This document shows positions 26,922 through 56,173 of a stretch of 64,000 nt of DNA, piece after piece. Both the position numbers and the translations under genes were made by a program. This DNA is from an uncultured bacterium (lineage in GTDB: Bacteria > Verrucomicrobiota > Kiritimatiellia > RFP12 > UBA1067), in the NCBI GenBank assembly GCA_902800055.1, contig CADCCW010000005.1, forward strand, positions 27,217 to 91,216, written 5' to 3'. Below the pieces are notes generated by a model. It did no database searches. It was not told the DNA's origin and saw only the letters and a list, made by a program, of their open reading frames with translations. Each line of letters starts with the position of its first letter. The stretch's first letter is position 1.

Positions 26922-27094
26922 AATCCGCCGCGGGAAGTGCCGCGGCTCAGCGGGGGAGAAATGCACCTGCGCCGAAGGCGCATCCCCTCCCAGCTTCGCC
27001 GCCCACTTTGCATACCTTGCGTCATAAGGCAAAGCACCGCAACATAGACATAACTGCCACGCCGAGATTACCACCGACAGCCAAACACCTCAGC

Positions 27095-28873
27095 TCACAA
27101 AGCCCCCTTGCCGTGGCATACTGGGCACTCTACATCGCGCTCGATTCGAATGCGGCCTCGCCTTTTACATTTGGGGCAATCAAAGCCAGCCTTGGATTTT
27201 TTGGTTCTCGATCTATCACCAACATGGTGACTGTTCTCTAATTCAATTTCGTGCGTAATTACTCCTTGTCCACCACACCCATCACACGGCTCGAGAACTG
27301 CCGTTTTCACCGAGCCCTGCCCACGGCATTTGTAACACTTTACCGGACCGCTGGTCTTTTGACCTGTCTGCCCGCCTCTTTTTATTTTCTTCTCGGCAGA
27401 TTTTTTCTTGCCTCTTTCAACAATCAACTCGCAATCTGCAAGATACTTGTCAACTGCGGATTCTTCCACCACCTCCATGTTCATTTCCCTCGCCTTACGC
27501 TCAAACTCCTTCTGAGCAAAGCTATTCTCAGCCGCAATCTTTAGTTCTTCCTCATCCTCCAGCACGGCAATATCACGAAGCCGTTCCCAATCCTCCCGCG
27601 CCCTTTGACGAACTTCGTAATTGATGTTGCCATGATAATGATACTGGAATTCCCGCGGTATATGAATAAGGCCGCTTATGTCTTTCTTTGTTATGCCCCC
27701 ATCATAGAACACGACTGTGCGTCGCATCTTTTTGGGAACCGGCGGTTTTATTGCCTTGGCGCTACGCTTTAATCTTCTTTCCAAAACATCTCTGACCGGA
27801 GCCTCTATGCTTTCCCACGAGACAACATCATCTGCGCTACAAATTCCAAGATCACAAACCCGCTCCCCGTTTTTCTTCTGCAATGTGACATGATATCTCT
27901 TGTCTGGAGTATTGATTCCTAACGCAAGCGTGATGTCCAAGAGCTTTCCAAGATCCGCCTCGTAAGGGACAAAAGCCTTCCCGCGATCTGGCACAGGGTA
28001 TCTCCCTGTATTCCTTGCGACACCACAGATTATCACCTTGCCACCCTTTACGAGAAGCCCCGCCCTTGATTCTGGTGAAGGTATGGCAAATCCGTCAGGA
28101 GCCTTTTCAGGCAATTTGTCTGGATATATAACCCATACTTCGACACCATTCTTGATTTCATAAATTCTACCATCACGGCTAAAGGACTCATCAACATAAC
28201 AAACAACACCAGTCGCATTCCCAGAAGAACTGTCCTTCATGACATCAAGATAAAAATATGTCGTCGCCAATCCGAATGCTTCACGCACTCGACGATAATT
28301 CTCCTGTGCGGCTGAAATCTTTTCAATCTCGCGTCTTTTCGCCTCGCTTTCCTCGCGCGCTCTCCGACGCTCTTCCAGGCGCTCTTGCTCCAACCTCGCA
28401 TCCTCTGCCTCGCGCTCACGCCGAAGCCTCTGCTCCCGCTCTTCCGCCTCTTTGCGTTCATGTTCCAATTCCGCCGCCCTTTCCGCTGCCGCTCTCGCCG
28501 CCTCGGCGCGTTCCCTGTCCATTCGCAATTGGTCTTCATACGCCTGCCTCCGTTCGAATTTTCTATACTGAACAAGGCCAAACACAACTGCCGCGGCTAA
28601 CACCGCCGCGACTATGATATTGCGCACTGTTCCCGATTTGTCATTTGATGCTACCATATCGGAATCCAATCTCCTAATCGACCCAATGTTATTCTTTTTA
28701 AAATGAATCTTAGTGTTCGGAGAAACGCCCGATGCCTTTGGTGGATTTTGCATATTCCGTTCCTTGGTGTATGAAAACTTACAATTGCAGTATGGACATA
28801 TGATGTGCTGACCATCTGAGATCTCGTCTGGCACTTCTAACTGCGCCTTGCAAGAACGGCATTCTATTATCAT
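27095..28873 (-). CDS. Hypothetical membrane protein: N-terminal zinc ribbon, TM, coiled coil, C-terminal DnaJ-type CxxCxGxG zinc finger
   Basis: MIIECRSCKAQL...ICPYCNCKF; TM IIVAAVLAAAVVFGLV; E/R-rich coil; CYKCRGQG, CDGCGGQG, CPKCKRRG, CPVCHGKG; ATGA overlap with the upstream gene. Confidence 0.75.
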   Translation of the reverse strand: MIIECRSCKAQLEVPDEISDGQHIICPYCNCKFSYTKERNMQNPPKASGVSPNTKIHFKKNNIGSIRRLDSDMVASNDKSGTVRNIIVAAVLAAAVVFGLVQYRKFERRQAYEDQLRMDRERAEAARAAAERAAELEHERKEAEEREQRLRREREAEDARLEQERLEERRRAREESEAKRREIEKISAAQENYRRVREAFGLATTYFYLDVMKDSSSGNATGVVCYVDESFSRDGRIYEIKNGVEVWVIYPDKLPEKAPDGFAIPSPESRAGLLVKGGKVIICGVARNTGRYPVPDRGKAFVPYEADLGKLLDITLALGINTPDKRYHVTLQKKNGERVCDLGICSADDVVSWESIEAPVRDVLERRLKRSAKAIKPPVPKKMRRTVVFYDGGITKKDISGLIHIPREFQYHYHGNINYEVRQRAREDWERLRDIAVLEDEEELKIAAENSFAQKEFERKAREMNMEVVEESAVDKYLADCELIVERGKKKSAEKKIKRGGQTGQKTSGPVKCYKCRGQGSVKTAVLEPCDGCGGQGVITHEIELENSHHVGDRSRTKKSKAGFDCPKCKRRGRIRIERDVECPVCHGKGAL

Positions 28874-30159
28874 TCTCTTACTCCTTTCTCGTATTTTCCA
28901 GCGCGCTTCATCACTACACGCACCTCTTTCGTGCCTCGCCAATCATATCGACATTTCAATTCCCCCCTCCACCTCCACTCGTCATCGTCGTATTCCAACA
29001 CCGCTTCAACTGGGAAACCACGCTTCTCAAGGCCACCATACAACCGCGCAGCTTTGCCACATTCAACATAATCCTCCTTGAAGCCGCATATTGGCTTCAC
29101 CCTAGCCTTAACATCTTGATTGTCAGCTTCTGCAATCAGCACAATATGAAGCCCCAGCTCTTCTCTCGCAACATCATTCCATTCTCGGACATCCCCTACC
29201 TCTCCACACTCGCTGATGATCCAGTCGGTTATCTCCATTAGATCTTTCCACTCCTTGCGCAGCATACATAATCGAGCATTAAGCATGGCCTTACGAATTC
29301 GCACATCGTTTTCACGTTTGTTGACATCAGCTGCATCCACGGAAGTCCTATCCATTCGTTCTGCAGCCCCCTCGCCATAATTTAGTACAAGGACAAGTGC
29401 CTCCGAGGCGTTTGAGACAACTTTCTCTGCGCGCAATGTTCGCCCAGGGATCCCGTTAACACATTTCACGTCCTTAGGCATAAACTCACGAACGGTCTTC
29501 ATGTTAATTGCATAGTTAGCTCCAATGCTTGCCCCATGCGCCGATGCGACAATTACTCCAACCATATGCCCATACTCGTCAACGACTGGCCCGCCCGAGC
29601 AACCGCCAGCGATAGTGGCATCCATCTGGAAGTTGTCCTTTTGTCCTTTGTAGCCAGTTAAGCTGCTGACGATTCCCTTTGTTGCCTTAGGCTCAAAACC
29701 CAGCACATTCGGATTGGGGAAACCGACCGCATACACCGTCTGCCCAATTGAGCAACCAGATGACAACGGAAGAAATGACACTTTCGGAACACTGCATTCT
29801 GTTAGATTATAGACGCCATTTGTCATCCGTGGGAATAGATTGACCTTCATAAGCGCAAGATCGCGCTTCTTGTTCTTGGAAACAATAATTGCACGATAAG
29901 CCACATCGCCGTGCACAACGACGACTTCCGAGCTGTTCTCGACAACATGATGATTTGTCAGTATATAACCATCCTCCGTGATGAAGAACCCGGAACCATA
30001 CGCCGACAAGTGCGTTTTGCCTCTCTTGGCTTTCTCGGTAAGTCTTTCAAAGTCCTTTGGCTTTACTCCATCACGAATGAAGGAGTCAATAACCATCTTG
30101 TCGGACGACGGTCCGACAATCATCCAATTGGCAAGAAGGCATGCGGCGAATACACTCAT
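28870..30159 (-). CDS. Trypsin-like (S1C/HtrA-like) serine protease without PDZ
   Basis: GSGFFITEDGYILTNHHVV (His), RDLALMK (Asp), AVGFP, KGIVSS, QMDATIAGGCSGGPVV (Ser). Confidence 0.88.
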   Translation of the reverse strand: MSVFAACLLANWMIVGPSSDKMVIDSFIRDGVKPKDFERLTEKAKRGKTHLSAYGSGFFITEDGYILTNHHVVENSSEVVVVHGDVAYRAIIVSKNKKRDLALMKVNLFPRMTNGVYNLTECSVPKVSFLPLSSGCSIGQTVYAVGFPNPNVLGFEPKATKGIVSSLTGYKGQKDNFQMDATIAGGCSGGPVVDEYGHMVGVIVASAHGASIGANYAINMKTVREFMPKDVKCVNGIPGRTLRAEKVVSNASEALVLVLNYGEGAAERMDRTSVDAADVNKRENDVRIRKAMLNARLCMLRKEWKDLMEITDWIISECGEVGDVREWNDVAREELGLHIVLIAEADNQDVKARVKPICGFKEDYVECGKAARLYGGLEKRGFPVEAVLEYDDDEWRWRGELKCRYDWRGTKEVRVVMKRAGKYEKGVRE

Positions 30160-31373
30160 TTCCCCGCCTCCACTTCGTTTATGGATTTTGCTATGCTGTT
30201 TGCGATCTCCTTACGCAGCGCCTCTAGCTCCTCTGCGTTAAGAAAATCTATATTAACAGCCTTCTGCTTCAAATAATCTAGGTGGCGCTTCGCGGTCGTC
30301 AGCACCTCACCTCGAAATTTGCGCGCAGCCATGATTGCTTCGCTAATCCTCAGCAGCGACATCGCCTCGAATTCCCTCGCACGATTGTATATGTCCTGTT
30401 CGTGATCGCGCTCCAAAAGGGCGAGGTCATTCTCCAACGTCAGCGTCTTGCCTGCTTTGTCAAAAGCCCGTCTAGCCTCTGTTTCAGCCTCTGTCGCATC
30501 CATGTGAAGAAGATTTGCTCCAGCCAAACCAGTAATGTCCTCAAGCTGGCTCAACTGATTCTGCAATAATGAATTTGTAGTTTCCAGTTCTTTAATTCTT
30601 CGTTTGTGCCACGGCGACTTCGACTTGTTCGCCAACAACCTTTCGAGCTCCTTATCATTGTCAGCTAATTGCTTCTTGATCTTTTCTATCCGTTTTGGAT
30701 CGGCATTCTTCTGATACGAAGCATACTTGTCGCGCGCTGCTTTGAGTCGCCGGTTTACCTTCTCATCAGCCCCATTTACAGTTTCGTCATATTTTGCAAC
30801 ATTTGAGCGAATTCGCTTCTGGTAACGTTCGTCAACATCCTTTATCTTCTGCATTTCCGCCTCAAATTCAGATCGCAACGCCGATAGATCACTGCCACAA
30901 TATATGCGAGCCAAACGATTCATGACAACTGACGAAAGAATAGCCCGCACTCGCTCGATCTTGTCCCTATGTATATCTCCTCGCTTCTCGGCGCTCGCCA
31001 CCCTTGCCGAATTTGCGTTCTCAATTGCCCGCAGTTCACCTTCCAGAGCCTCTTGATCTATATCAATCTTTTGAAGATTGATCTCAGCTGTCTCCACTTC
31101 CACCCGAAGACGCTCTTCTTCCCGATCAACATACCGGATAAACATACGCATTGCGTCATCCTTGGCAAGAGCCTCCGACCGCTCCTTGCGGACGCGCTCG
31201 TCCTCTGCCTTTTTCTTTTCCTCATATTCACGCTCTCGCGCTTCAGACTCTTTCCTCTGCTCCAGACTGCGAATGTACGCACGCTCTCTGTCAGCACGAT
31301 CATTTTCTGTAACGTACCAGAAAACTGCCGCAGTCAACGTCGATATGAACATTATCAATACGACAACCTTCAC
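30156..31373 (-). CDS. Hypothetical membrane-anchored coiled-coil protein
   Basis: N-terminal TM (VVVLIMFISTLTAAVFWYV), then about 380 aa of E/K/R/A-rich helical sequence; GTG start with AAGGGGG SD. Confidence 0.75.
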   Translation of the reverse strand: MKVVVLIMFISTLTAAVFWYVTENDRADRERAYIRSLEQRKESEAREREYEEKKKAEDERVRKERSEALAKDDAMRMFIRYVDREEERLRVEVETAEINLQKIDIDQEALEGELRAIENANSARVASAEKRGDIHRDKIERVRAILSSVVMNRLARIYCGSDLSALRSEFEAEMQKIKDVDERYQKRIRSNVAKYDETVNGADEKVNRRLKAARDKYASYQKNADPKRIEKIKKQLADNDKELERLLANKSKSPWHKRRIKELETTNSLLQNQLSQLEDITGLAGANLLHMDATEAETEARRAFDKAGKTLTLENDLALLERDHEQDIYNRAREFEAMSLLRISEAIMAARKFRGEVLTTAKRHLDYLKQKAVNIDFLNAEELEALRKEIANSIAKSINEVEAGK

Positions 31374-31454
31374 TTCCGCCCCCTTTCTTGCCGCTGTTGT
31401 TCATTGGGAAAACGCCGGCGGCAAAAGAGCGGCGCACTCCCGAAATTCACATCT

Positions 31455-31575
31455 CAGTAGAGGCACCGCTAAGAGCCTGTTTGGAAATATGAACGAAGAA
31501 GTGCGCCGCGTGATTGTCACGCAACGCACAGCCCGTATTTCACTTCCAAACTGAAAAATTAGCGGTTTTCCACTG
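31455..31575. repeat. Long imperfect palindrome (about 120 nt rod hairpin)
   Basis: Nested arms: CAGT/ACTG, ACCGCTAA(31465-72)/TTAGCGGT(31559-66), GTTTGGAA(31479-86)/TTCCAAAC(31544-51), GTGCG/CGCAC, GCGTGA-ttg-TCACGC. Confidence 0.7.
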
Positions 31576-31804
31576 AAGCTACTTTACGTACTGCTGCGTA
31601 CGTCTCCTCCTTGTGGCGAGACTCCTTCACGCTATGCTTGGGCAGGACGCCGACTTTGGAGGATTTGCCGCGGGCGTCAATTGCGTTTCCGCGGCTCTGC
31701 GATGACGGAACTACTGCAGGCTTGCTCCGCCGTTGGGAAAGAGCGTTCGTCGCTCTCGCGATATAGCCGTAGACGCCAGCCCGTCAGCGGCTGAAAGTGT
31801 TCGT

Positions 31805-31815
31805 ATTATACCATA
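31805..31815 (-). promoter_or_regulatory. Extended -10 promoter TATGGTATAAT with no adjacent ORF
   Basis: ATTATACCATA on the plus strand; the nearest downstream start is 430 nt away (31373). Confidence 0.7.
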
Positions 31816-32064
31816 TTCTATGCATGTTGTGGTGAAAACTGCCGCGGAGTCCCCAGCATCCACTAGTTAGCGGACGCGCTTGCGGTGCGGCGGAGGGCGG
31901 GGAGCCGGCCCGACGACGTGATTCGAGACCTAAGCGCCTTCGGAACGGATGCGAGTTCCGGTCAGTGTCGAGAATCCCGAGCTCGGCACGTTAGGAGGCC
32001 GAGCGTTCGGCGGGCCGAGCTCCACCGCCCGAAGCCGTGAAAGACGGACGTGTAGGCCGAACGC

Positions 32065-32865
32065 TTAGGCGTAGAAGTTGCCCAGGGCGCGGAGCTTCGA
32101 ATAGCGCTCTTCGACCAGCTGGTCGACGGGGACCTTCGCCAGTTCCTTGAGCGCCTTGAGCACGGCCTTCTTCACGTTTGCCGCGGCGGCGGCGTGGTTC
32201 GTCTGGGCGCCGCCGGCGGGCTCGGGCACGATCTCGTCGATCGCCTTGAGCCGCTTGAGATCGCGGGCGGTGATCTTGAGCGCCTTCGCGGCCTCAGGGG
32301 CCTTGGAGCCGTCGCGCCAGAGGATGCCGGCGCAGCCCTCGGGCGAGATCACCGAGTAGACGGCGTTCTCGAGCATCAGCACGCGGTCGCCGACGGCAAT
32401 CGCGAGCGCGCCGCCGGATCCGCCCTCGCCGGTGACGACGACCACCACCGGCGTGCGGAGACGGGCGAAGAACTCGAGCGACTTCGCGATCGCCTCGGCC
32501 TGGCCGCGCTCCTCGGCCTCGCGGCCGGGATAGGCGCCGGGGGTGTCGACGAAGGTGACGACCGGCAGGTGGAACTTCTCGGCGAGCTTCGCGAGCCGCA
32601 TCGCCTTGCGGTAGCCGTCGGGGTTGGCCATGCCGAAGTTGGCCTCCATGTTCTCCTCGACCGTCGCGCCCTTGTTGTGGCCGAGGACGAGGCACTTGAC
32701 GCCGCCGATCGTGGCGAAGCCGCCCACGAGGGCGCGGTCGTCGTTGACGAGCCGGTCGCCGTGGAGCTCCGTGAAGTCGGAGCAGATGCGCGCAATGAAG
32801 TCCTTGAGGTGCGGCCGCTTCGGGTCGCGCGCAAGCTTCACGCAGTCCATTGCACTCTTAGCCAT
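32065..32865 (-). CDS. accA: Acetyl-CoA carboxylase carboxyltransferase alpha
   Basis: ARDPKRP, ELHGDR, NFGMANPDGYRKAMRL, FVDTPGAYPG, GEGGSGGALA, YSVISPEGCA. Confidence 0.96.
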   Translation of the reverse strand: MAKSAMDCVKLARDPKRPHLKDFIARICSDFTELHGDRLVNDDRALVGGFATIGGVKCLVLGHNKGATVEENMEANFGMANPDGYRKAMRLAKLAEKFHLPVVTFVDTPGAYPGREAEERGQAEAIAKSLEFFARLRTPVVVVVTGEGGSGGALAIAVGDRVLMLENAVYSVISPEGCAGILWRDGSKAPEAAKALKITARDLKRLKAIDEIVPEPAGGAQTNHAAAAANVKKAVLKALKELAKVPVDQLVEERYSKLRALGNFYA

Positions 32866-53406: not shown

Positions 53407-55466
53407 CGCCGGACCCTCCTGCGGAAGACTACTGCCGAAAGGACGAGAAACACCAGGAGCGGCGCCAGCGCCGCGGAGGCGAGGGTAAGCTTGAGGCGCG
53501 AGGCGCGGTCAAGTCCGGTGGAGAGAACCGCGGGGTCGGCGCTCGACGCGCCGGTGAAGTCGGTGCCGGAGAGGTAGGCGACCGCGTTGAGGAAGAAGTC
53601 GCGGTTGGCGCTGGCGCGCGCGGCGAGGGCGGCGTTGGAGACGAACGCCGCGTCGCCGACGGCTACGATGCGCGCCGGGCGGATGGCGAGGTCGCTGCCG
53701 GCGCCGGCGCCGCGCTCTGCCGCCGCCACGACGGCGGCTCCGCCGGCGCGGGCGAGGGGCAGGAACTCGATGCGGTCGGCCCCGGCGCCGCTCTCGGCCG
53801 CCGCGGAAAGCTCGAAGGAGAGCGGACGGTCGAGGACGATGCGCGAACCGGCGAGGGCGGAGGAGACCGGATGGTCGGCGAAGTCGGAGACGATGACGTC
53901 GGTGCCGGAGATGGTCTTCTGGTCCTTGAGCGGCTTCACCACCGGGCGCATTCCCCAGGCCGGCAGCAGCGGCGCCACGCCGCCGGTGCCGGGGCGCCCG
54001 AGCATCACCAGCAGCCGTCCGCCGTCGCGCAGAAACGCCTCGATGCGCCCGAGCTCGGCGCGCGAGAAATCGTCCTTCGCGCCGGCGACCACGAGGAGCG
54101 CGCAGTCGGCGGGGATCGGCGACTCGGCGGCGAGGTCGACGGCGACGTTGCGGTAGCCCTCGCGGGCGATGTCGCGGGCGATGTCGCTCAGACCCCAGGA
54201 GCCGTAGTCGTCGAAACGGGCCTCGCCGTGCCCGACGGCCCAGCAGACGTCGCGGTGCTGGGGCGGGCTCACGAGGCTGCGGAGCGCGGGCGCGAGGTCG
54301 TTCCAGCCCGCGCCGTCGGCGAGGTCGAGGATTGCGGTGCGCCGCCCCTTCTCGAAGACGATGCTGCCCTCGCGGGCGCCGAGGCGCGCCAGGCGCCCGG
54401 CGGAGCCGATGTCCCAGCGCGGGTCGACGTAGCGCACCTCGAGGCGCAGCCCGCCGAGCGAGTCGGCGGCGCGGCGCAGCGCGCGCAGGCGCCGCGCGAC
54501 CTCGCGGAAGCGCGGGTCGCGGCGCGAGAGGAAGGCGGTGGCGGAGACGGAGCCGGAGGTCTCGGAGATCGTGCGGCGGAGGCGCGGCGAGAAGTCCCCG
54601 CCGCCGCCGGAGGTGAACTCGAACGAGACGTCGAGCCGCGCCGCGAGCGCCGTGACCGCGACGGCGAAGAAGGCGGCGAGCGCCAGCGCGAGCGCGGTGG
54701 ATGCGCGGAGCATGCGCGAGCCGCGGCCGACGAGCCGCAGCGACGAGACCGACTTCGAGGCGACGAACAGGGCGAGGACGGTGAAGACGACGTAGGCGAC
54801 GGCGGTGCCGAGCGTCACCGAGCCGGACACCATGTCGGCGACGTGGGCGTCGAACGGGAAGTCGCCGAACACGGTGCGCCCGGCGGCGGAGAACGACAGC
54901 AGCGCCTGCCAGACGCCGCGGGGCAGCGCGGCGAAGAGGATAATCGAGGTGCAGAAGGACGCGGCCGAGTTCGCGAACGCGGCGCTCACGGCCGAGGCGG
55001 CGGCGCACCAGAGCGCGCCCTGCGCGGCCAGCGCGGCGAACGCGGCGATCACCTCGCTCCAGTCGGCGCCGGCGAGCGCGGCGGGGGCGAAGGCGGCGAG
55101 CGCCAGCCCGCACGAGGCGAGGGAAAGCGCCACGACGAGCAGCAGGGCGAACCACACGCCGACGAACTTGCCGACCACGAAGTCGCGCTCGCGCACGGCG
55201 ACGGAGAGCAGCAGGTCGGTGCGGCCGGTGCGGCGCTCGTCGCTCCACACGTCCATCGCGAGGAAAGCCGCCGCGACCGGCAGCAGCGCCGAGGCCGAAA
55301 GCGCCCAGAGCGCGACGACCGACGCGCTCGTCCCCTCGGCCGCCTCGAGCCGCAGCGAGAAGATCGCCGCGACGGCGGCCATGAACAGCCCCGCCGCCAG
55401 CGCGGTCGGGAACTGGCTGCGCAGCCGGCCGACGGTGCGCCGGAAGGTCACCGCGACCGGGCTCAC
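53403..55466 (-). CDS. ABC-2 permease fused to GldG-like periplasmic domain
   Basis: Six TM with DERRTGRTDLLLSVAVRERDFVVGKF (EAA-like), then YVDP, CWAVGHGE, LVVAGAKDDFSRAE...FLRDGGRLLV, IVAVGDAAF..N...NRDFFLNAVAYL. Confidence 0.85.
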   Translation of the reverse strand: MSPVAVTFRRTVGRLRSQFPTALAAGLFMAAVAAIFSLRLEAAEGTSASVVALWALSASALLPVAAAFLAMDVWSDERRTGRTDLLLSVAVRERDFVVGKFVGVWFALLLVVALSLASCGLALAAFAPAALAGADWSEVIAAFAALAAQGALWCAAASAVSAAFANSAASFCTSIILFAALPRGVWQALLSFSAAGRTVFGDFPFDAHVADMVSGSVTLGTAVAYVVFTVLALFVASKSVSSLRLVGRGSRMLRASTALALALAAFFAVAVTALAARLDVSFEFTSGGGGDFSPRLRRTISETSGSVSATAFLSRRDPRFREVARRLRALRRAADSLGGLRLEVRYVDPRWDIGSAGRLARLGAREGSIVFEKGRRTAILDLADGAGWNDLAPALRSLVSPPQHRDVCWAVGHGEARFDDYGSWGLSDIARDIAREGYRNVAVDLAAESPIPADCALLVVAGAKDDFSRAELGRIEAFLRDGGRLLVMLGRPGTGGVAPLLPAWGMRPVVKPLKDQKTISGTDVIVSDFADHPVSSALAGSRIVLDRPLSFELSAAAESGAGADRIEFLPLARAGGAAVVAAAERGAGAGSDLAIRPARIVAVGDAAFVSNAALAARASANRDFFLNAVAYLSGTDFTGASSADPAVLSTGLDRASRLKLTLASAALAPLLVFLVLSAVVFRRRVRR

Positions 55467-56173
55467 GGCTCCACCTCCCCCAGCGCCGCGGCGACGCGTT
55501 CGCAGAGCACCGCGCGGTCGGTCCCGGAAGCCGGCACCGACGCCGACACGATCCCGTTCCTGAGCACGAGGAAGCGCGTGGTCCACTTCGCGAAGTCGGC
55601 GATCTCGTGGCCGGTGACGATGACGGACGAGAACGCCGCCGCGTCGGAGAGGATGTCGCCCGCCGCCTCGCGCATGGTGCGGTCGAGCCCGGCGAGGAAG
55701 TCGTCCAGCAGCAGCACGCGCGGGCGCAGCAGCAGCGCGTCCGCGAGCGCCACCCGGCGGCGCATCCCGGCGGAGAGCCGGCGCACCGGCTCGCGCATAA
55801 GGTCGTCGACGCGGCAGAGCTCCGCCGCCTCGCCGACGCGGCGCCGCACGCGCTTCGACGGCTCGCCCTTGAGCCGCGCGCGGTAGTTGAGGTACTCCTT
55901 CACCGTCATGTCGTCGTAGAGCGCCGGGCTCTCCGGCAGGTAGCCGAGCTGGCGCCGGTAGCGGAGCGGGCGCGCGAAGGCGTCCGCGCCGTCCGCCAGC
56001 ACCGCGCCGGAGTCCGGCGCCATCAGCGTGGCGAGGATCTTCAAAAGCGTCGTCTTGCCCGCGCCGTTCTCCCCCACCACGCTCACGATCTCGCCGGGCG
56101 AGACCACGAACGACACGTCCCTGAGGACGGTCTTGCGCGCGTAGGAGAAGGCGAGGTTGCGGACGTCGAGCAT
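55463..56173 (-). CDS. ABC transporter ATP-binding protein (GldA-like)
   Basis: GENGAGKTT, GYLPESPALYDDMTVKEYL, LSAGMRRRVALA, Walker B LLLDDF. Confidence 0.88.
   Translation of the reverse strand: MLDVRNLAFSYARKTVLRDVSFVVSPGEIVSVVGENGAGKTTLLKILATLMAPDSGAVLADGADAFARPLRYRRQLGYLPESPALYDDMTVKEYLNYRARLKGEPSKRVRRRVGEAAELCRVDDLMREPVRRLSAGMRRRVALADALLLRPRVLLLDDFLAGLDRTMREAAGDILSDAAAFSSVIVTGHEIADFAKWTTRFLVLRNGIVSASVPASGTDRAVLCERVAAALGEVEP

Follow-up and report, generated by a model that had tools for sequence, protein, structure and literature searches.

What is transcribed from a promoter that no gene follows for several hundred nucleotides? This question is raised by a site in the genome (2.29 Mb, 64% GC, 90% complete) of an uncultured rumen/gut bacterium, placed in the Kiritimatiellia by relatives of its AccA and by the DNA runs in which the sequence occurs, of which a stretch of 64,000 nucleotides, hereafter the window, was analyzed. 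The window carries nine exact copies of the extended -10 promoter TGGTATAAT, against 0.01 expected from shuffles. At eight of these sites, the -10 element lies 6, 6, 7, 7, 10, 11, 36, and 79 nt from the first ORF (minimum length 60 or 100 aa), in agreement with a first-pass annotation of this DNA that had placed eight of the nine copies near a start codon. The ninth copy, on the minus strand (31805-31813, an exact match without a -35 element, with a predicted transcription start site at ~31798), is separated by 431 nt from the next start, a GTG at 31373; the 430 nt free of start codons reported earlier were thus correctly seen. Genome-wide, 302 TGGTATAAT sites are found, devoid of a -35 element and carrying a conserved ACRCRC just downstream. 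Their median distance to an ORF start is 12 nt, so that the organism appears to use mostly leaderless mRNAs transcribed from extended -10 promoters. Among them, the site at 31805-31813 belongs to the top 1-2% and is therefore an outlier.

This promoter lies between the stop codon of accA (32065) on one side and a 4.5-kb block of low GC content on the other. The block corresponds to a minus-strand operon (27095-31373), delineated from composition, ORFs, and Pfam matches, with 49% GC against ~66% around it. According to the ORFs and Pfam, it encodes a 405-aa coiled-coil membrane protein, a 429-aa Trypsin_2 protease, and a 615-aa protein harboring zinc ribbons and DnaJ-type CXXCXGXG fingers. PADLOC matched these three proteins via the trypsin domain only and assigned them to no known defense system. 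It is well supported that the promoter and the operon are connected by a leader of ~375 nt, which runs on the minus strand from ~31798 to 31423; 50 nt past its terminal U-tract, the first gene of the island displays an SD-like AAGGGGG followed by the GTG start at 31373 (31371-31385, minus strand). These three genes also stand together behind the leader in two other genomes (G006 and G220). The gene order downstream of accA is not constant between species, and the RNA is absent from all 42 accA loci examined in a synteny comparison.

Repeats are present on both sides of the locus. Between accA and the promoter, outside the transcript, lies a MITE-like repeat of 155 nt (31882-32037) with inverted ends of ~35 nt, of which the genome holds five further full copies at 88-95% identity (contigs C9, C16, C17, C1, and C15) as well as solo ends; contigs assembled from metagenomes are 5-10x deeper over this repeat than over its flanks. 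The distal end of the island carries a 70-nt repeat (26989-27062, minus strand) also encountered at the distal end of a second leader-headed island (C16:79385-79453) and at C32:6409-6474. Elsewhere, the 70-nt repeat runs on into a longer one of ~200 nt, which is present at least six times (C3, C49, and C23). It may represent a common 3' boundary, a terminator, or an anchor for the recombination of cargo genes.

Predicted fold and expression of the leader

The predicted transcript has a minimum free energy (MFE) of -161.5 kcal/mol, with a z-score of -5.25 relative to 100 shuffles, and all four hairpins named by the first-pass annotation exist in its MFE fold. The 5'-proximal hairpin, AGCCG...CGGCU (31765-31792, minus strand, as for all features of the leader), is found in both the MFE and the centroid folds and varies between copies of the element. 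The next one in the MFE fold, GAGAGCG-ACGAA-CGCUCUU (31734-31757), overlaps a boxA-like motif. It is followed by a variable middle domain (31605-31731) in which the MFE fold places three hairpins: GGCGGA...UCCGUC (31704-31731), GCCGCGG...CCGCGGC (31667-31695), and UCCUCC...GGAGGA (31605-31663), the last of which encloses an inner hairpin. The CGTAC-gcagca-GTACG palindrome had been likened to RPE1-type repeats, a likeness that has to be abandoned: it is actually the nearly invariant first helix, ACGUAC-GCAGCA-GUACGU (31586-31603), of a conserved RNA domain, and is 99.7% paired in 68 sequences.

In the orthologous leader of another genome, G019, the hairpin overlapping boxA is kept by a change from G-C to G-U, and pairs of the middle domain survive one-sided changes. 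Across the family, the region between boxA and the conserved core spans 45-290 nt, with hairpin modules that differ by subfamily. An alignment of the full-length 5' half yielded no single consensus structure, these modules being too different between subfamilies. One leader of G006 (L029, C48, ~2751-2938) has a TGGTATAAT promoter that abuts the conserved core directly, without boxA or middle domain. This natural minimal version could be useful for dissecting the function of the element.

Expression was examined over a 1.1-kb stretch in four rumen/gut metatranscriptomes, using assembled, unstranded, and shallow (2-5x) contigs from runs chosen because they hold the leader sequence. Contigs were recovered only within 31362-31779, and none from accA or the island genes in these four metatranscriptomes. 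Their ends on the promoter side lie at 31779, 31772, and 31752, a short distance past the promoter, and one of them reads past the GTG to 31362. Two paralogous leaders, on C15 and C6, had no coverage in the same four runs. The pattern at this locus is consistent with a leader that is abundant and in most cases terminated, a fraction of the transcripts reading through.

A structured RNA family and its predicted switch

The interval 31425-31604 has paralogues in the genome, where nhmmer identified six copies. All six carry the motif TG[GC]TATAAT, placed 188-239 nt ahead of the conserved domain. For the 190 conserved nt, a covariance model named R1 was built from 23 sequences and used at three taxonomic depths; relatives of the organism hold hundreds of copies. 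In the genus, R1 is detected in 97 of 117 genomes (31 of the 32 high-quality ones), with 1-19 copies per genome. In the order, it is present in 171 of 244 genomes and 31 of 47 genera. A sample of the phylum gave 55 of 301 genomes and 30 of 149 genera, at lower scores and with other classes included. Among the matching genomes is G458, a member of the class assembled as a single contig of 3.9 Mb (E = 1.6e-9). Every copy examined shows the same layout, consisting of a promoter, a hairpin, a motif resembling the boxA of rRNA (rrn) leaders, variable hairpins, the 190-nt rod, and a tail with its U-tract.

None of the known RNA classes that were searched corresponds to this element. At the gathering threshold, Rfam 15 has zero matches in the whole window, and the Rfam comparison proposed by the first-pass annotation, relaxed to E<=10 over 31200-32100, returned nothing relevant: its single match is a chance microRNA on the opposite strand (E = 0.53). 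ARAGORN detected neither a tRNA nor a tmRNA. To judge from titles and abstracts, none of the literature retrieved on Kiritimatiellae and noncoding RNA concerns an RNA of this group. A family of RNAs without Rfam match in Kiritimatiellia/Verrucomicrobiota, weaker across the phylum than in the order, is thus well supported. 6S RNA, which the first-pass annotation had not excluded, is single-copy, ~180 nt long, and independent of neighboring genes, with a central bubble; it was rejected in view of six cis-linked copies of ~375 nt and no Rfam 6S match.

The core of R1 beyond its first helix is a rod of four stacked helices (31453-31577, RNAalifold on 23 sequences). They are termed Pa (31569-31577 with 31453-31461), Pb (31559-31566 with 31465-31472), Pc (31544-31550 with 31480-31486), and Pd (31517-31529 with 31501-31513), and the internal loops of the rod are conserved (GAAGYGAAAUACGA, AGGCUC, and GCC). 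Fold and covariation were also analyzed with homologues, as had been proposed at first pass. In the consensus structure of 68 sense-strand members, 97.8% of the cells are paired against 85% in shuffles, and compensatory change affects 35 of 49 pairs, with up to five pair types at single positions. The compensated cells number 438, compared with 114+-10 in shuffles and 52-77 in slid controls. Covariance model scores reach at least 80 bits for the sense strand and at most 53 bits for the antisense strand. Together with the compensatory changes, this asymmetry shows that selection bears on the RNA of the minus strand.

These results also bear on the reading that the first-pass annotation had named as its own refutation, namely that the region is a MITE/REP element or what is left of a decayed CDS, without RNA function. 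The element is indeed multi-copy, and its long, palindrome-like rod sits at a GC boundary. Nevertheless, the orientation is fixed with respect to the promoter and the gene, the element itself lacks terminal inverted repeats, covariation is strand-specific and far above both controls, conservation extends across the order and beyond, no conserved reading frame was found within the family element, and the true MITE-like repeat is a separate entity (31882-32037). For the transcribed part of the locus, this reading can practically be discounted.

Downstream of the rod lies a putative terminator tail, GUGCGCCGC (31429-31437, minus strand), complementary to the Pd 3' strand GCGGCGCAC (31501-31509). 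It is directly followed by the U-tract UCUUUU (31423-31428), a U-rich tail being conserved in the alignment. By its complementarity, the tail rivals the Pd 5' strand for the Pd 3' strand. The alternative pairing is 98.0% paired, against 94.6+-0.3 in shuffles, and contains 23 compensated cells against 4.7+-1.7, a value reached by 0 of 500 shuffles. It is visible in raw sequences as well, for example in GUGGCGUGC / GCACGCCAC. The Pd helix is rich in G-U pairs, while the helix between the tail and the Pd 3' strand is of Watson-Crick type and adjoins the U-tract. Since the Pd 3' strand covaries both with the Pd 5' strand and with the tail, a single strand has two selected partners, which, at the level of sequence, is the classical signature of an antiterminator/terminator pair.

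Two other pairings at this end were considered and set aside. Pairing of the tail with the Pb/Pa 3' strand (AGCGGUGCCUCUC) looks good by eye and displays no covariation, so that pairing with the Pd 3' strand was preferred. A small 3' hairpin proposed by RNAalifold (helix 7) is weak, being 90% paired with few double changes. With ~65 nt, the loop enclosed by the predicted terminator stem would be unusual; since this length is far above the 8-nt limit of the simple terminator scanner, the stem was missed by it.

Cargo genes and their exchange

The relationship between the RNA and the genes behind it was examined at 60 loci fetched from other genomes, with ORF positions counted over 59 of them and GC content over 49. 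In 56 of the 59 loci, the first co-oriented ORF starts within ~100 nt of the end of the RNA model. This is too close for a separate promoter, which makes it well supported that the element is a cis-acting RNA leader. With the covarying 3' switch, the same count bears out one of the two proposals of the first-pass annotation, a regulatory 5' leader of the island operon. Its other proposal, a free sRNA, possibly 6S, is not supported, given six cis-linked copies, each tied to the following operon, and the lack of an Rfam match at E<=10.

A broader version of this second proposal deserves separate mention: a stable trans-acting RNA, released by termination and acting in a 6S-like manner or as a sponge for Nus factors or another protein, for which the link to downstream genes would be incidental. 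Such an RNA would account for a metatranscriptome assembly restricted to the leader interval, as well as for the strong promoter, the terminator-like end, and the long irregular hairpin. It would not account for the strict co-orientation seen in 56 of 59 loci, where fewer than 100 nt separate the RNA from the gene behind it, for up to 19 copies per genome with differing 5' halves, or for the RNA contig that enters the ORF, and neither 6S nor any other Rfam family matches. We thus consider it very unlikely.

As a cis-acting leader, the element heads a particular class of genes. Directly downstream of each of the six copies of the genome stands a co-oriented block of 1-8 genes with 40-56% GC, beyond which the GC content returns to 65-70%. 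The same trend is observed in the fetched loci, where the 2 kb downstream have a lower GC content than the upstream sequence in 44 of 49 cases (mean 6 points, p = 6e-11), with recovery 4.5-6.5 kb further downstream of the leader. The first genes are extremely diverse and encode surface proteins (BspA-type LRR and Listeria-Bacteroides-repeat proteins), restriction and modification enzymes, Z1, FGE-sulfatase domains, acyl- and glycosyltransferases, a kinase, proteases, GtrA, PrsW, and Sel1/ankyrin repeat proteins. The genes behind the leader are flexible genome rather than a metabolic regulon.

Comparison of closely related leaders revealed that this cargo is exchanged. In G019, the MITE, the promoter, and the leader are 89% identical to the window down to 31412. 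Beyond this point, G019 carries a single different gene of 735 aa, and similarity resumes at 27142-26989; this module occupies another genomic neighborhood. Contigs of three further public runs equal the window from accA through the leader to exactly 31412, past which they carry other cargo of the G019 type. Identity from accA to 31412 followed by different genes indicates two cargo alleles behind one leader at one locus. More generally, 18 of 22 pairs of leaders at least 85% identical carry unrelated cargo, the pairs being not all independent and representing at least seven leader lineages, and similarity ends between -20 and +95 nt from the model end. Cargo is thus swapped at the 3' end of the leader, between species and, at 31412, between strains. 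The 615-aa island protein and the 735-aa alternative cargo (L159, G019) share only a C-terminal DnaJ-type zinc-finger module, and the 3' recombination breakpoint falls inside this shared coding end.

The exchange brings forward a reading in which the leader is mainly a boundary at the DNA level, a recombination or landing site or a portable promoter end, whose conservation serves cargo exchange. Besides the swaps at the leader 3' end in 18 of 22 similar pairs and at the window locus, it can invoke the different genomic neighborhood of the G019 module and the other repeats on the island flanks (31882-32037, and 26989-27062 shared with the C16 island). Such a boundary, however, would not call for compensatory changes that include G-U pairs or for the strand asymmetry of the covariance model, both of which denote selection on RNA; breakpoints scatter from -20 to +95 nt rather than at a single site, and no integrase or transposase was found beside the family copies examined. 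As the main role of the element, this is distinctly unlikely, although a boundary role and a regulatory role are compatible and not mutually exclusive.

boxA, proposed mechanism, and known systems

How a cis-acting leader of flexible genes might work is suggested by a motif of its 5' half. In the 300 nt upstream of the core, G[ACT]TC[TC]TT is present in 53 of 59 leaders, against 110 of 1097 control windows. The family consensus, UUGAUCUUUGACAUA, stands 20-100 nt past the -10 element and precedes a G+C-rich hairpin. The window leader has a degenerate variant, GCUCUUUCCCA (31734-31744, minus strand), partly paired in the GAGCG/CGCUC hairpin, and this variant recurs in several other family members. 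The two 16S leaders of the genome (C21 and C14) display a promoter TGATATACT, a hairpin, and then (C/T)GCTCTTTGAA(A/T), and the core of the family motif is identical to this boxA. It also agrees, except at one position, with the gamma-proteobacterial boxA consensus GYTCTTTAANA (PMC5725501). From its match to both, the leader motif is, as judged by sequence, a boxA of rrn type. A third class of boxA-bearing leader was noticed, composed of GAGGTATAAT, a hairpin, and GTTCTTTGACAACTGGCAGG; it is identical at three contig ends (C7 in reverse complement, C18:43343, and C22:38622), its downstream part being lost in a collapsed assembly repeat.

Some of the factors relevant to boxA antitermination can be recognized in the genome. 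NusB (C9:4957-5376, 101 bits) and Rho (C4:70880-71098, 93 bits) are encoded, and S10 is a universal ribosomal protein. The only specialized elongation factor found in the genome is an orphan NusG paralogue of 170 aa (NGN + KOW; C6 ~55360-55870, minus strand), which is encoded beside a DEAD-box helicase gene and is widespread in the bacterial family. As a dedicated partner of the leader, this paralogue was rejected, since it does not co-occur with the RNA: it is present in 15 of 20 genomes without the RNA and in 13 of 25 genomes with it.

The favored reading, to which we assign a probability of about 0.6, is that the leader of the low-GC operon is of a nut/rrn-like kind, in which boxA-dependent Nus loading and the rod/tail switch together gate accessory operons. 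Action via boxA/Nus factors and a terminator switch is plausible, the share of the Nus factors being inferred by analogy. Acquired DNA of high AT content is silenced by Rho in the best-studied bacteria, and NusB/NusE, once bound to boxA, nucleate complexes protecting the polymerase against Rho (PMC12360218). As in rrn operons and at lambda nut, the nascent boxA would bring NusB/NusE to the polymerase, accompanied by NusA and NusG. The resulting complex would confer resistance to Rho while the poorly translated, AT-richer accessory genes are transcribed. Against this reading, complexes of rrn type are known mainly for countering Rho, rather than intrinsic terminators, and the boxA of the window leader is degenerate and partly paired. 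The rod/tail switch would add a checkpoint just ahead of the first gene. With the Pd 5' and 3' strands paired, the tail would be free and polymerase would read through; if the Pd 5' strand, rich in G-U pairs, is instead displaced by the perfectly complementary tail, a terminator stem would form beside the U-tract and transcription would stop, leaving an abundant short leader RNA. The switch might be set by the polymerase in its Nus-modified form, by a small signal molecule, or by a protein recognizing the conserved internal loops. In the LoaP-dependent dfn leader, too, a terminator located ahead of the first gene serves as a checkpoint (PMC12691694).

The switch could also operate without any Nus role. 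In that case, the leader would be a riboswitch-like or protein-binding attenuator, whose rod would be an aptamer or a protein site responsive to some global signal, such as an ion, a second messenger, or an RNA-binding protein dedicated to it, and the boxA-like motif would serve another purpose or none. Mutually exclusive terminator and antiterminator helices that both covary, invariant nucleotides in the internal loops, a gene directly downstream, and the degenerate boxA of the window leader are all in keeping with such an attenuator. Against it, the downstream genes share no pathway, unlike metabolite riboswitch regulons, boxA occurs in 90% of the leaders and matches the rrn boxA of the genome, and no known riboswitch class matches. 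On balance, an attenuator of this sort appears rather unlikely, and the combination of boxA/Nus loading with the switch remains the preferred reading.

A wider proposition, tentative and more easily doubted than the mechanism itself, is that Verrucomicrobiota, and above all Kiritimatiellia, license their flexible genes by RNA, a portable nut-like leader of ~375 nt gating most low-GC cassettes of defense, surface, and glycan genes. New cargo arriving behind a resident leader might then escape silencing by Rho and come under a shared control signal, the leader providing the anchor of homology for cargo exchange. If true, a phylum common in rumen and gut would handle its flexible genome via one recognizable RNA element, and the R1 model would be a sequence marker for the starts of accessory islands in MAGs. 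boxA/Nus control would no longer be confined to rRNA, phage, and some housekeeping genes but would reach dozens of acquired operons in each genome, and a testable link would be established between xenogeneic silencing through Rho and the manner in which high-GC hosts come to express new genes. A large structured family with very clear covariation would join the short list of long bacterial leader RNAs. The covarying three-strand switch is also a clean system in which to examine how strand displacement controls termination.

Several known systems share part of these features. The boxA leaders of rrn operons, lambda nut, and suhB have in common with the family a promoter-proximal hairpin and a boxA in the nascent RNA, and rrn and nut leaders likewise head long transcription units expected to be Rho-sensitive. 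By contrast, the family has two elements absent from rrn and nut leaders, namely the conserved 190-nt rod and the predicted terminator switch, and occurs in 6 to 19 copies per genome before protein-coding accessory operons. It is not known to have an N-like factor.

LoaP (dfn, mln) and RfaH/ops (JUMPStart) systems also rely on long 5' leaders of horizontally exchanged accessory operons, which direct polyketide synthesis for LoaP, and LPS, capsule, and pilus formation for RfaH/ops. JUMPStart, too, marks the conserved 5' boundary of loci that exchange their contents. However, LoaP and RfaH systems require a NusG paralogue, which a small hairpin or a DNA element recruits, whereas the conserved RNA of the family is much larger and the NusG paralogue does not co-occur with it. 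HK022 put and the Bacillus EAR element are cis-acting structured RNAs in leaders of long operons that, as the family could do, act on the transcribing polymerase. They are 70-120 nt in length and are not known to contain a boxA or a built-in terminator switch, and no Rfam family, EAR included, matches the leader.

Terminator/antiterminator riboswitches and T-box leaders resemble the family in having two exclusive helices on one strand, a U-tract, and a gene directly downstream. They differ from it in that no known aptamer class matches the leader, its regulon is functionally heterogeneous, and the 5' strand of its predicted terminator is ~65 nt from the 3' strand. Finally, the integron platform (Pc + attI) is comparable as one promoter-bearing platform with diverse, exchangeable, promoterless cargo. 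The leader differs by having no integrase, attC-like sites, or breakpoints at a fixed base, and its platform is a structured RNA leader. If the licensing of flexible genes by RNA proves true, the part played by RfaH/ops leaders and that played by the integron platform would be combined in a single element made of RNA.
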